This document shows positions 9,404 through 63,178 of a DNA stretch of 64,000 nt, piece after piece. Every line of letters begins with the position of its first letter. Positions within the stretch are counted from its first letter, which is position 1. This stretch comes from Eledone cirrhosa (lineage: Eukaryota), in assembly GCA_964016885.1 (NCBI GenBank), contig OZ024745.1:43834001-43898000 (forward strand), given 5' to 3'. The position numbers were made by a program, and so were the translations under genes. Under the pieces are notes generated by a model. It saw only the letters and a program-made list of their open reading frames with translations. It made no database searches and had not been told where the DNA came from.

Positions 9404-10320
9404 TATATATATATATATATATATATATATATTATATATATATATATATCATGACTAAGTGTGGACCTTGTTACTCAGGAGTTTCACCTGAACACTCAAG
9501 AGTAACAATGCTCACCATTTAGCCATTAAATATTCAAACTCTACTTTGGTATTGAGTAGCTGTTCTCCCGTCCGTCAATAATACACATATCTGTAAAGTG
9601 AAATAGTTTTCATGATGTGGAAGAACTAAATGACAATTGAAAGCACTGTCAATGTATGTATACACACACGTACAAATATGCACACACACACACACGTATA
9701 CACACATGTATACAAATGTATACACACACAAATCTGTATATAATATACACACAAATATGTATATAATATACACACATATGTATATAATATACACAGAAAA
9801 ATATGCATACAATACATATGATTATGCATAGATATATTTGAGACAACAGTAGCTATAGTCACCGGTGAAAAAAATATATGGCTAAATGAAAGTGACTAAT
9901 TTGGAACCCGGTACGTTTAAGAAATTTGTTAGTAGATTGATTGTCATTTTGTAATACCCCAGACACAAATATCTCAAACTGTGACACGTATGATAACACA
10001 TAGAAATTATCAAATTTTTAAAGCAATTTATAATTAGTAGCGGTGCGTTTTCGTTTACTTTCCTTACAAAGTTATGTGCCTATGACTAGATCATACAATT
10101 AAAGGGAAAGAAGGCGGGTTCTATTTCAACTAGGACGATAATATTCTTTTTAAAATTCTATAGATTTATATTATTTAAAGATACCAATTTATGGCTCAAT
10201 ATAAACGACCCGCATCTTTAATGCTTATCACACCTCGTCTAACTATTCTTAAACACCATTTTTGATCTTTTTTTTTCCTCCCTCCCTCTCCTTATCAAAA
10301 GATATGGAAATATTACTTAC

Positions 10321-10680
10321 ATAAATCAGGCCAGAATAGTAACGATCTTTCAAATTATAAAGTACTGAAGCTTCATTCAAACAGGTAAGTTCTGCCATAT
10401 CCTCAACTTTATTGAATTTAGGGGGGTTTGCTTTTTGTATGTCATCTCTGTGATATGTTGACCGCTTGCCAGTTTCTTCAATTTCGACGACAATCTCGTC
10501 GCCTTTTTCTTCTGCTACACAGCCGGCAATGAAGCCATTTGTGTCGTGGGGTACCCATACCATTCGTTTGGCAGCCCATTGTGATTGTGCCGAAGGGTCT
10601 GTTAGAAGATTGCGATCTACAGTGAGATATTTCAATTCTTGGGCGCTCATGCACGCAAACGGATCTTCCGCAGTCGCCAT
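10321..10680 (-). CDS. First coding exon of non-muscle myosin II heavy chain (MYH9/MYH10/zipper-like): SH3-like N-terminus and start of motor domain
   Basis: 120 codons MATAEDPF...LKYLTVDR...[10 protein letters not shown]...[49 protein letters not shown] start context, phase-0 donor GTAAGT at 10320. The gene continues leftward beyond the window. Confidence 0.95.
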
Positions 10681-10899
10681 TTTGTGTAGCCGTGTGTGTA
10701 TATATATGTATGTGAATGGCGCTTATATAAGGGCTGTGTTGCTGGCCCGATAATTTTTTTTTAGTTAGGAGCTGAAATTACGAAACAGGTTAAACTCCAA
10801 TGCTTCAAATGCACGCAGAAATATTCTGCTGGTGTTGTTAATAAAAAAAACAGCCACTTTTCTTTTCTTTCCACTTTATTCTCCGATCAGTGACGGAGA

Positions 10900-11020
10900 A
10901 CACTGAACTTTACCCCGGTAAGACAAGAATTTAAGTCGTAACTTTAGCTGTATTTATGATTGGCACATCATGTGACTCTTATTAAACCCGCCTCTCATTC
11001 ACCAGACACGCCTCCCCTTC
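10900..11020 (-). promoter_or_regulatory. Candidate myosin II proximal promoter
   Basis: Minus strand carries GC-box-like GGGGAGGCG and GAGGCGGG (10987-11017), E-box GTCACATGA (10968-10976), CCAAT (10959-10963) and CATAAATA (10951-10958), in locally CpG-richer unique sequence. Confidence 0.5.
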
Positions 11021-11442
11021 TCCAGCAAGTCTAAATGGCGTATCTTAAACTGACAGTCGTTGTTGTTCGCCTTAGCAACTTCGAATTCGGAATTATTTCC
11101 ATTTTTTTGGTTATAAAATAGATATTGTTTTGTTTAGTTTGGTTTTTCATTAGCAACTTAAAACATGTTGCTGCTAATGTCAATTTCATATTTTGTTGTT
11201 TTTTTATGTATCTACATTCTTAATTGGTGTCCTATAAATTATGATGGTTTTTTTCCCTTGCTAGTTCGAGCTAACAAAAAATATAATAATAATAAAAAAA
11301 GGAACAACAAAATAAACTTAAGCAACTCTCTAATATCTACTAACTTGTTTGTTTCTACATTTATTCTCGCCAAAGAAAAGTTTCATTGAGAAAATAATAA
11401 GAATGATCGTTGAATGGCGTTTACACTACAACAGCCTTGACG

Positions 11443-11632
11443 TATATATATATATATATATAATATATATAATATATATAATATATATATATATATATAA
11501 TATATATAATATATATAATATATATATATATATATATAATATATATATATATATATATATAATATATATATATATATATATAATATATATATATATATAT
11601 ATATAATATATATATATATATATATATATATA
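11443..11632. repeat. (TA)n microsatellite
   Basis: Direct reading. Confidence 0.95.
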
Positions 11633-12419
11633 ATGGACAGGTGGAGATGAACGAAACAGCAGAACTACTAGCTGGGTATTTTTTTGTTGGGGTTTTTTCA
11701 TCTAGTTGAATACTTCACTGTTCTGAGTTCAAAGCCCACTCGTAGTGAGTCTGTCTTTTTACACTAGGATTGGGACCCATTGAAACAATCACCTATAACA
11801 TTATACACCCTCCCCCTACAAAAATTGGCCTAGTGCCCAGTTAAACAATTATCAATCTTTATACACATAAAATGTTTTTGTAAACATAAGTATATATGTT
11901 ATGACAGGTAACATTTGCTGGCTTTACCACTATATGAAACTGAATACACTTATACTCTGCAACACACCTTCCCTACATCTAATTGCAATCTCAACTAATT
12001 CATCTCTTCTTACACTCCAGCCTCTCTTGCACTCTTTCCTTTCGGCTTTCTTTTCTTCAGTTTAATTTAAATCATTCTCTGTTTTATAGTCGACCGGTTC
12101 TCTTTCTTTTGTTTTCTTTTAACGAGAAGCTCGAGCTTCTTGATATTTGTCCCAGTCTAGATTTTATATCAATTTTCATCTTTTTAACATAAAATTTCCT
12201 TTCTATCATATTTGATATTTCATCCTTCTGCACTAATTAAGGTGCTCTAATTTGATAATCATACATATCTTACGTATATATATATATATATATGTAGGAG
12301 GTGAGTTTTATTGTAGTACAATAAAGCAATGCAGATATCGGATAAGAAGCACTCTACAGTTTGTAGGACTGGAGTATACATAATATATAAGATCAAAAGA
12401 TGGTTAAAAGAGTTCCATG

Positions 12420-12490
12420 TATTTTATTATGCGCATTTCAAAAACAAATATCATCATGCAATAATATTTGTGTTTTCATCAGATAAAATA
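12420..12490 (-). ncRNA. Minimal type-I hammerhead ribozyme (mirror copy)
   Basis: Exact reverse complement of 12592-12662. Confidence 0.8.
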
Positions 12491-12591
12491 GGAAGACATG
12501 ATATGAAGGTTAAAAAACACTTGTGAATAGTGCAGTTGATTCAAAACTGCACTATTCACAAGTGTTTTTTAACCTTCATATCATGTCTTCC

Positions 12592-60486: not shown

Positions 60487-60667
60487 CCAAAGGCCTTTTG
60501 GATTTGAGCCTCCGTGGCTCTCTCCACCCGATGTGACATTTTGCTTACGGTGCGGTAAGTCCCCGTCCGTAGCTGCTGGTGTCTACTATAATTTATAATG
60601 GATTAACAGACTGCAAAAGTCAGTGAACAGTTATATCTACAATACCACACAATTGATTACAGTGTTT

Positions 60668-60800
60668 TCTATATATCTAAACAGAGAATGTCTGCCTGTC
60701 TGTCTGACTCCCTAAAACTCGAGAACCACCCAACCGATTGTTTTCAAACTTTACACTTATGGTCGTGTGAATGTTTTGAGCAAAAAATATTTCAAATTTT
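60668..60800 (+). mobile_element. Possible non-autonomous Helitron 5' end
   Basis: TCTATATATCTAAA...(CTGT)n...AAAACTCGAGAACCACCCAACCGATT...TCAAACTTT resembles invertebrate Helitron-derived repeats; no 3' hairpin/CTAG end identified. Confidence 0.4.
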
Positions 60801-61208
60801 CAATGCCCTAGGGACATTAGGCGGTTTAGCGATCTCTCTATAATTCTTTGTATGTCTTTTTAGATAGATACATAGCTACGACGTCGCACCCTTATAATAT
60901 CTGTCTGTATGTCTGGCTGTCTGTATTACGACATTATGACGCTATCTGTGTGTGTGTATATATGTATATATTGTATGTGTGTATATATTTATATATAGTG
61001 GAATGAGAGGGAACATAATATAGTGTAACTATGGGTACTCACATTAGTAGGGACTCTTCTTCTTGCTCTTGCTCGACGAGGCTGAGGTCATCCTAAGCCA
61101 GCGATCCCAAAGCATCATCGTATAGGTACCCTACTGGAATGGAAGGGAGCATAATATAGTGTATCTATGGGTGCTCACATTAGTAGGGACTCTACTGGAA
61201 ATATATAT

Positions 61209-61412
61209 AACAAATTTAATATAAGAAATGGCTTCTATTTGACTAGAACTGTTTCATTTGAAGGAAAACATCAGGCTTTCCTGATGTTTTCCTTCAAACG
61301 AACAGTTCTAGCCCCGTAGAAGCCTTTTCTATATTAAATTTGTTGTTTACACTCTACTAATGTATTGAGTATCTTACTTACTGTGATTATCCCCGATTGA
61401 ACCCAGGACTCA
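61209..61412 (+). mobile_element. Fold-back element with degenerate hammerhead-like core and ACTC...GAGT tail
   Basis: Arms 61209-61275 and 61280-61344, loop CTTT; tail homologous to 62985-63046 in inverted orientation. Confidence 0.65.
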
Positions 61413-62012
61413 CACATAAATATATATATATAATAATAAAATGGACGAGGTGTTAAAATTTGATTACATTTATTGAAGTGTGATGCGCATTTTGCGTTTG
61501 TTCAGCTTAAGGTTTGATCTGTATCGATTAGGCCCGACTCTGGAATCAAAAGCTCATCAAAACTTCTGTTAGTGCAATGACGAAATGATTCCCATACAGC
61601 ATTAAGAAAAAAAATGCATATATATCTATCTATATATCTATATATATATATATATATATATATATATATATATGCATGTGTGTGAGATTATATGTTTATG
61701 AGCAAGTGTAATAATAGAGATTTTAAACCTTCACACGTTTCATATCTCTTGATTTATATTGACAGTGTTTTGTAGTAATATATATAAAGAAAAGACCATG
61801 TGTACCAATCCTAACTACCTCGGTCACACAGCATAATACATTATGCAACTTGTATACATTCAGATATTCACACGTTTAAGTCAATTCCAAACATTTTATT
61901 GTCACTATAGTTTTAGAAGTAGAACACAGTTTCATTGAAGACTACTAATGTACACACACATACTTGCATGCATATATATAAGTATATCCACCCACACACA
62001 CATCTGTTCATC

Positions 62013-62980
62013 TTTCTCTCTCTCTCTGTCTCTCTGTCTCTCTATCTCTCTCTCTCTCTCTCACCCCCTCTCTCTCTCTCACTCTCTCTCTCTCTCTCTC
62101 TCTCTCTCTCTATATATATATATATATATATATATATAATATATATGTATATGTATATATATATATATATATATATATGTATATGTATATATATATATAT
62201 ATACATATATATATATATGTATATGTATATATATATATATATATATATATGTATATGTATATATATATATATATATATATATATATATATATATATATGT
62301 ATATATATATATATATATATATATATATATATATATATATATATATATATATATGTATATATATATATATATATATATATATATATATATATATATATAT
62401 GTATATATATATATATATATATATATATATATGTATATATATATATATATATACATATATGTATGTATATATATATATATATATATATGTATGTATATAT
62501 ATATATATATATATATGTATGTATATATATATATATATATATATATATATATGTATATATATATATATATATATATATATATATGTATATATATATATAT
62601 ATATATATATATATATATATATGTATATATATATATATATATATATATATATATATATATATATATATATATGTATATATATATATATATATATATATGT
62701 ATATATATATATATATATATATATATATATATATATATATATGTGTGTATATATATATATATATATGTGTATATATATATGTATATATATATATATATAT
62801 ATACATATATATGTATATATATATATATATATATATATATATATACATATATACATATACACATATATATATATATATATATATATATATATATATATAT
62901 ACATATATATATATATATATATATATATATATATATATATATACATATATATATATATATATATATATATACATATATAT
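62013..62980. repeat. (CT)n then (TA)n microsatellite
   Basis: Direct reading. Confidence 0.97.
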
Positions 62981-62981
62981 A

Positions 62982-63178
62982 CGTTATTCCGGGTTGAATC
63001 GGAGGTAACCACAGTAAGTAAGGTACTCAATACATAGCAGAGTATAAAAGTTTTAATATAGATGAGATTCTACAGGACTAGAACTGTTTCATTCATTAGA
63101 AATCATCAGGAATCTCTGATTCCTGATGATTTCTAATGAATGAAACAGTTCTAGTCCTGTAGAATCTCATCTATATTA
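62982..63178 (-). mobile_element. Fold-back element, perfect 61-bp arms, hammerhead-like core
   Basis: Arms 63054-63114 and 63118-63178, loop TCT; CTGATGA...GAAACAGTTCTAGTC in each arm; embedded in (TA)n. Confidence 0.7.

Follow-up and report, generated by a model that had tools for sequence, protein, structure and literature searches.

The seven short inserts that share an ACTC...GAGT motif in the window (the whole stretch of 64,000 nucleotides of Eledone cirrhosa DNA analysed here) are probably 5′-truncated ends of Hydra-clade Penelope-like elements (PLEs), with three of their lineages demonstrated as such and two attributed, and the motif, a bulged hairpin, probably positions the reverse transcriptase (RT). 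All seven motifs, reported earlier in a sequence-only reading, are present at the positions and on the strands given there. That reading took the inserts to be otherwise dissimilar, which does not hold for the motifs at 20267 and 31456, which match one family, nor for that at 61351, about 77% alike to the family of 63043; five lineages, here families A to E, therefore remain:

9450..9588 (+): family E end, old; decayed arms, hairpin 9538-9558, tail
12293..12692 (-): family B end, young; long palindrome, hammerhead core at 12482, hairpin 12375-12350, tail, in (TA)n
12375-12708: family B palindrome
20195..20365 (-): family D end, old; palindrome 20274-20365, hairpin 20267-20241 with one base altered, tail
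27503..27680 (+): family C end; inverted arm long (27539-27586) and forward arm short, hairpin 27605-27629, tail
31410..31520 (+): a further copy of family D; arm very short, hairpin 31456-31482, tail
61206..61420 (+): older family A relative; palindrome 61209-61344, decayed hammerhead, hairpin 61351-61371, tail
62982..63178 (-): family A end, young; one inverted and one forward arm, the latter with a type I hammerhead, then a 68-nt tail, in (TA)n
63024..63043 (-): family A hairpin 1, starting 6 nt past the inner end site (~63050)
63054-63178: family A palindrome, within the insert 62982..63178 (-)
63064..63116 (-): family A type I hammerhead; core CTGATGA from 63109, GAAA, GUA cleavage triplet

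This layout of inverted arm, hammerhead and optional tail is the known inverted pLTR plus tail of Penelope elements. The motif does read away from the palindrome centre, as had been claimed, at all four palindromes listed. Hammerhead cores lie on both palindrome arms at 12 kb (12482(-)/12600(+)) and 63 kb (63109(-)/63123(+)), and the claimed agreement in sense between core and motif holds there for the core on the tail side. The core at 61.3 kb has decayed, in keeping with the proposed hammerhead or relic; all three stems of the family A ribozyme are present in the predicted fold, and longer relatives of family E have a hammerhead with an ACTC/GAGT helix III. In an Rfam scan of the whole window no ribozyme was among the best 150 of 452 matches, which were dominated by (TA)n matches to miRNA models. 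Embedding in (TA)n, proposed for all inserts, needs correcting at 9.5 kb, where the tail side has no clean (TA)n.

The parent of family A is a Hydra-clade PLE, as judged by motifs and architecture. Its pLTR, hammerhead and hairpin directly precede a 758-codon open frame in 10 of 10 loci. Across these Hydra-type elements, a complete one has the order pLTR, hammerhead, hairpin 1, hairpin 2, ORF (RT plus GIY-YIG), 3′ UTR, hammerhead. The single ORF of the family A parent encodes an RT, whose motifs were read by eye (Pfam RVT_1 gave no score), followed by a C-terminal GIY-YIG domain with a weak match (E 0.001, below the Pfam cut-off). The protein has DKT instead of DKG, RWR as an RWK-like motif and, by eye, a CxCX5C linker and CxxC/CxH around conserved E and N, with no CCHH; DKT, the RWK-like motif, the CxCX5C linker and CxxC/CxH are given as marks of the Hydra clade in the accessible part of PMC8557442. 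A canonical pLTR hammerhead, (TA)n insertion, tandem or inverted pLTRs and an optional tail were likewise found. Family A numbers at least 150 copies with 97-100% protein identity, so that a recently active protein is at hand.

The insert at 62982..63178 matches the pLTR plus tail of one ORF-bearing copy (L227) at 98-100% identity, and that at 61206..61420 matches the family A pLTR plus tail at 75-78%. The family B insert shares 93-96% identity with a copy (L387) whose tail continues into hairpin 2 and then a Hydra-type ORF; such a continuation into hairpin 2, followed by Hydra-type coding sequence, is seen in 4 of 30 family B copies, and 5 more have a nuclease end upstream. For family C, Hydra-type coding sequence lies upstream on the same strand in 2/30 copies, which share this upstream sequence. 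The insert at 31410..31520 is 91% identical to family D tails. Thirty copies of each of the old families D and E, examined with 1.5 kb flanks, gave no ORF linked in the same sense for the former and no convincing same-strand link for the latter; both would be of Hydra origin by their architecture only. The suggested linkage to RT plus GIY-YIG ORFs was in this way recovered for three of the five lineages (A, B and C), and the continuity of inserts with ORF-bearing Hydra elements supports the proposed dependence on Penelope. A Helentron/MITE origin was dropped after the ORF-bearing parents turned up.

The hairpin is real, although not the plain ACTC...GAGT stem first described: as a structure it is a bulged two-helix hairpin with the consensus RCTC-YR..YR-2-nt bulge-GAGY-RCT. 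Enrichment over shuffled sequence depends on the pattern used. The loose pattern ACTC-N8-22-RAGTR is not enriched in the window (27 matches against 23.3 +/- 5.0 by chance, a number reached by 50/200 shuffles), whereas a stricter pattern, defined after the motifs had been seen, gives 7 against 0.7 expected, with 0/200 shuffles reaching 7. In an independent test, the hairpin pattern was matched 44 times in 400 kb of arbitrarily placed genome stretches, compared with 3-9 times in 8 shuffles, and extrapolation gives ~290,000 hairpins genome-wide (about one per 10 kb). Of 79 Hydra-type loci taken from unrelated metagenomes, 25 also contain it, with compensatory pairs, usually twice per element in the 5′ UTR, 70-160 nt upstream of the ORF start. 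Among these 25 loci, selected by sequence only and including related sequences and both hairpin copies in the counts, the first pair is formed in 25/25 cases (15 C-G, 10 U-A; permutation mean 13) and the next two in 17/25 each (permutation means 7.6 and 6.8); other offsets fail. The hairpin was undetected in the remaining 54/79 outside loci, many without flanks and some with them, and is absent from 2 of 6 published Hydra consensus sequences. Taken one at a time, the hairpins have weak predicted folds (z +0.6 to -1.8), and for 3 of 7 the minimum predicted is the bulged form. Rfam covariance models searched against 10 outside Hydra loci left the hairpin unmatched; the only 2 matches obtained were weak, to miRNA models, and lay elsewhere. 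A Pfam GIY-YIG search of the genome recovered mostly Neptune-like families, in which the hairpin was found at 0/19 3′ ends and in 0/5 upstream regions; as a control this comparison is weak, because any signal lying past the 3′ end would escape view.

Insertions end at one of two 3′ sites, each 2-8 nt 5′ of a hairpin copy, and since these alternative 3′ ends each adjoin one hairpin, the tail is the interval between the two sites. By eye, 16 of 30 long family A copies end ahead of hairpin 1 and the other 14 have the tail. The 3′ end falls 2-4 nt before hairpin 1 or 2 in 7/8 informative outside loci (of 14 hand-picked for having the hairpin, 6 proved uninformative and in one the alignment ran too far), and a third Hydra family in this genome has an offset of 5-6 nt at both sites, the second being taken from one tandem copy. 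Counting against this model, the outer site is used in those 14/30 copies of family A, yet a recognisable hairpin 2 is missing there and only a short unbulged stem is found. Taken with the covariation, the position of the hairpin relative to insertion ends suggests that it likely tells the telomerase-related RT where copying starts, much as the sequence-only reading had supposed in proposing a role in RT recognition.

The palindromes probably arise from the same arrangement. Within the proposed scheme, the RT protein would bind the hairpins and nick both strands of (TA)n, and one cDNA would begin 5′ of each hairpin, on opposite nicked strands; a hairpin directing a start would not be copied by that cDNA, because the cDNA starts 5′ of it. 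If transcripts start in the pLTR, the start sites would lie only ~65-170 nt from the cap, so that each cDNA would reach the 5′ end and run off it, in many cases with a copy of the cap G, and two such run-off cDNAs joined head to head would give a palindrome with a tail on one side only. Full-length copies would require a tandem, more-than-unit transcript. Consistent with run-off, the end of 11/14 palindromes lies 58-68 nt from the inner site, immediately 3′ of a TATA box, and an extra G stands at 26 of 52 non-parent junctions where the parents have C or T. An AG precedes the truncation hot spot in families A and C; a 3′ splice site is less favoured as its cause, since a capped start better fits the extra G of three families. 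Among 30 copies with a shared junction the tail lies on one side in 15 and on the other in 12, never on both.

Self-priming or fold-back of a single cDNA, with synthesis stopping near the hairpin, seems an improbable source of the palindromes in place of two primed cDNAs. It would lead one to expect the correlated arm lengths that are observed (154/105, 268/242, 45/52), and it is favoured for rotifer Penelopes (PMC3846280, as far as accessible). However, either arm can be longer, it is often the inverted arm that is longer and this arm can itself carry the extra G, the inner site is a free 3′ end in over half of the long copies, and flip and flop are about equal (15:12). Somewhat less improbable, if still unlikely, is a function of the hairpin elsewhere, either as a DNA signal for the GIY-YIG nuclease resolving the insertion or as a translation or promoter element of the 5′ UTR, with end proximity a by-product. 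Its placement before the ORF would suit a 5′ UTR element, its nearly all Watson-Crick pairs fit RNA or single-stranded DNA alike, and the D. virilis tail is reported to be needed for nuclease recognition of plasmid DNA (PMC11167929, accessible part). A constant offset from two different ends in several families nevertheless fits a positioning role, and a signal that lies past the stretch being copied can act only through the template or donor and not through the new copy.

The sequence-only reading had favoured separate non-coding, retrozyme-like mobile RNAs; that such RNAs are copied from short masters by the Penelope protein now appears very improbable. Short copies are the majority in family C, one exact junction is common to 71 places, families D and E lack a linked ORF in the copies examined, and non-autonomous PLE derivatives have been described (10.64898/2026.07.22.740005, accessible part). 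Against this, the inserts are continuous in sequence with ORF-bearing parents, those at 63 and 12 kb being near-identical to parental pLTR plus tail; junctions vary (~12 distinct among 14), the 71 places sharing the window's own junction compare with 7,196 tail copies, same-junction copies differ in tail variants and orientation, and no tandem arrays were seen in the loci read. The earlier interpretation is, as a whole, partly supported.

Truncated Hydra-type ends agree in many respects with known systems. According to the accessible part of PMC8557442 (Craig et al. 2021), the Hydra clade, for which one octopus member is listed, has the same C-terminal GIY-YIG, DKT, RWK-like motif, CxCX5C linker, hammerhead, (TA)n insertion, inverted 5′-truncated copy and optional tail; the tail is 30-40 nt there and ~68 nt here, where the 3′ UTR is ~2 kb or more and ends number hundreds of thousands. 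That part covers few families, annotates the hammerhead alone and makes no mention of a hairpin pair. In PAc, a Poseidon element of Anolis, two internal RT start sites bound the tail in vitro, both target strands are cut and extended, and the template is uncleaved RNA (PMC11167929, Frangieh et al. 2024). The PAc starts lie inside the ORF at an AC-rich stem-loop, with no conserved binding motif defined in the part accessible, whereas here a conserved covarying hairpin of the 5′ UTR closely follows each end site on its 3′ side. Non-LTR retrozymes share the type I hammerhead, the ORF-less short copy and the PLE pLTR origin (10.64898/2026.07.22.740005, PMC7229834, accessible parts) but are head-to-tail tandem repeats; the present inserts are dispersed head-to-head pairs with varied junctions, and head-to-tail hammerhead units were not found among the window inserts and sampled copies, all single or head-to-head. 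Penelopes of Adineta vaga have inverted pLTRs, an optional tail, palindromes at the inverted junction, TATA and Inr in the pLTR, and solo pLTRs; these were explained by self-priming on an antisense template, with no hairpin signal described in the accessible part of PMC3846280. No description of the hairpin was found in the literature searched, beyond whose reach lay most subscription papers, Repbase and Dfam. It appears unreported, and the supplementary figures of PMC11167929, bioRxiv supplements and Repbase Hydra sequences, which lie outside this comparison, may bear on novelty.

Penelope-like RTs are the closest relatives of telomerase, and their template choice, optional tail and inverted pLTR have been open questions since their first description. 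A 25-nt covarying hairpin, two copies of which predict both insertion ends, makes the question testable with few mutant RNAs, and a great many short repeats of this genome are reclassified as Penelope ends. It is tempting to speculate, if only tentatively, that the hairpin is a portable, clade-wide RNA anchor, found from corals and sea cucumbers to cephalopods, lying 3′ of the template start and itself uncopied, and that the anchor pair loads the two subunits of a dimeric telomerase-sister RT. If so, the pair would account within a single scheme for the Penelope tail, the head-to-head pLTRs and the abundance of strong-stop palindromes, and any RNA with the hairpin could be written into (TA)n.

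The seven ACTC/GAGT motifs and four palindromes described in the sequence-only reading were present as stated when the window sequence was re-inspected, and the motif instances fall into five lineages:

63 kb and 61 kb of the window: family A inserts
12 kb: family B insert
27 kb: family C insert
20 kb and 31 kb: family D inserts
9.5 kb: family E insert

A loose form of the motif (ACTC..RAGTR) is not enriched over shuffled sequence (27 vs 23.3), whereas a strict pattern, chosen post hoc, is (7 vs 0.7). Exact matches to 31-35-base tail strings in this 3.0 Gb, (TA)n-rich genome number 7,196 (A), 8,053 (B), 6,349 (C), 79 (D) and 123 (E), with none for reversed control strings. 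A structural descriptor of the bulged two-helix hairpin gave 44 matches across 40 stretches of 10 kb taken at arbitrary positions (8 shuffles gave 3-9 each), with a microsatellite 25-110 nt downstream in 32 of the 44; extrapolation from these matches gives about 290,000 hairpin-bearing tails genome-wide, and clustering separates at least a dozen tail families.

Parent, ORF-bearing elements were reached from contig loose ends at the 63-kb insert, through sequence upstream of the hammerhead and long copies, to full elements. In family A, the terminal repeat (pLTR), hammerhead and hairpin lie directly 5' of a 758-codon frame at 10/10 loci, chosen for having a long frame, most with a second hammerhead ~2.4-3.4 kb past the stop. 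The protein, 97-100% identical over 212 residues among 150 scored copies, shows the Hydra marks listed in section 11 of PMC8557442; its only Pfam match is a weak one to GIY-YIG. In family B, 4/30 consecutive copies extend past the tail to a second hairpin followed by Hydra-type coding sequence, and others of the 30 have the nuclease end upstream; family C copies have a common upstream sequence and same-strand Hydra-type coding in 2/30. Linkage to Hydra-type coding sequence holds for families A to C; 30 copies each of D and E gave no convincing link. The family A-C inserts very probably belong to a known kind, the ends of Penelope-like elements of the Hydra clade; the same assignment is probable for D and E, based on hairpin and architecture, to which E adds a Hydra-like hammerhead.

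Insertions end at two alternative sites. Among 30 long family A copies, 16 end 6-7 nt 5' of the hairpin (inner site) and 14 have a 68-nt tail reaching the outer site, as scored by eye (a script gave 16 and 15, one extra match included). An inverted arm is present in 14 of 30 consecutive tail-bearing copies, 2 of which failed to align, and every arm starts 0-6 nt from the inner site. This layout corresponds to the inverted pLTR and optional tail described in PMC8557442 and PMC3846280, and the two sites agree with the two internal RT start sites of PMC11167929.

What seems new is that a conserved pair of hairpins predicts where both ends fall. Fourteen loci outside this genome were picked because they carry a hairpin together with two pLTR copies. 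Of these, 6 stopped at a contig edge, and in 7 of the remaining 8 the insertion ends 2-4 nt 5' of a hairpin (the eighth alignment over-ran); four ends precede hairpin 1 and the other four hairpin 2. In family B the end lies ~6 nt 5' of hairpin 2 and the arm starts ~8 nt 5' of hairpin 1; a third Hydra family of this genome gives 5-6 nt at both sites, the second from one tandem copy. Counting against the relation, no second hairpin can be recognised in family A despite its well-used outer site, and single hairpins are predicted to fold weakly. A search of mainly open-access literature found no description of the pair; the motif table of PMC8557442 lists hammerheads only, and Rfam gave no match to the hairpin.

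An alignment of 40 relatives led to 79 loci in metagenome contigs, of which 25 have the hairpin in flanking sequence (32 sense vs 8 antisense matches). Hairpin 1 lies 73-98 nt from the hammerhead core, and many loci carry two copies ~60-70 nt apart before the ATG. Covariation was seen: in 25 unambiguous sequences of 50 candidates, selected by sequence only and counted raw with related sequences included, the pair adjoining the 2-nt bulge forms in 25/25 (15 C-G, 10 U-A) and the next two in 17/25 each, while at offsets 0, 1, 3 and 4 pairing fails. The outer pair is mostly G-C outside (U-A at one locus) and mostly A-U in this genome. By eye, six published Hydra consensus sequences include three with a clear hairpin (one coral and two sea-cucumber elements, one bearing both copies), one imperfect form and two with none. 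Many Hydra hammerheads (supplement S2 of PMC8557442; family E loci L067-L072) have a helix III that reads ACTC-N-GAGT. These letters recur at the base of the tail hairpin in this genome, which could reflect a shared origin or an alternative pairing.

Other elements share the surroundings. A further palindrome-hammerhead-tail insert in (TA)n (33067-33480, -), abundant at other loci, has a tail without the hairpin and probably represents the end of an element from another Penelope clade, one that has a signal of its own. Hammerhead cores at 27141 (+) and 35736 (-) belong to two repeat families present at many loci. Five Neptune-like elements (L106, L107, L114, L123, L124) have 3' UTRs ending in (TA)n with, by eye, apparent U3-A8 hammerhead variants (a type described in PMC4209133) with a CCGG helix III. 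Hairpin-bearing and Neptune-like ends are often nested in one another's (TA)n; at L111 (5079-5575) a hairpin family with a 45-nt loop insert sits in (TA)n ending a Neptune-like element. The window also holds two inverted LINE copies (20714-26683; 96% complementary over 1,845 nt, a PHD finger inside the RT frame), a Tc1/mariner-like transposase frame with a weak Pfam match (37388-38449, -) and, at 55800-60600 (-), a broken L1/Tx1-like LINE, the latter two family names assigned by reading. A myosin heavy chain gene has its first coding exon at 10249-10722 (-), covering Myosin_N and the beginning of the head domain; most of the window lies 5' of this exon.

In 11/14 family A palindromes both arms end 58-68 nt from the inner site, ~30 nt past a TATA box, at a CA that we take to be an initiator-like motif. 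A second family A palindrome just past the window (G000:C5:43898310-43898520, G000 being this genome) is inverted relative to the 63-kb copy, its central loop flipped. At the matching position in families A, B and C, a G immediately precedes the junction in 4/10 (A), 8/14 (B) and 14/28 (C) cases, where parents have C or T (similarity-picked loci excluded; parent/junction split approximate); we read the extra G as a trace of run-off at a capped 5' end. The family C hot spot falls inside the hammerhead, which explains the half-hammerhead relics. The window's exact family A junction occurs 71 times, and among 30 of these copies, 15 have the tail on one side, 12 have it on the opposite side, 3 were left unscored and none has it on both. 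Either arm can be the longer. The pattern fits two cDNAs, one per site, better than copying of a short master element. On the two-cDNA reading, with every step inferred from DNA, the hairpin is likely a signal that positions the RT, twin priming would yield one cDNA from each end site, and both would run off the capped 5' end.
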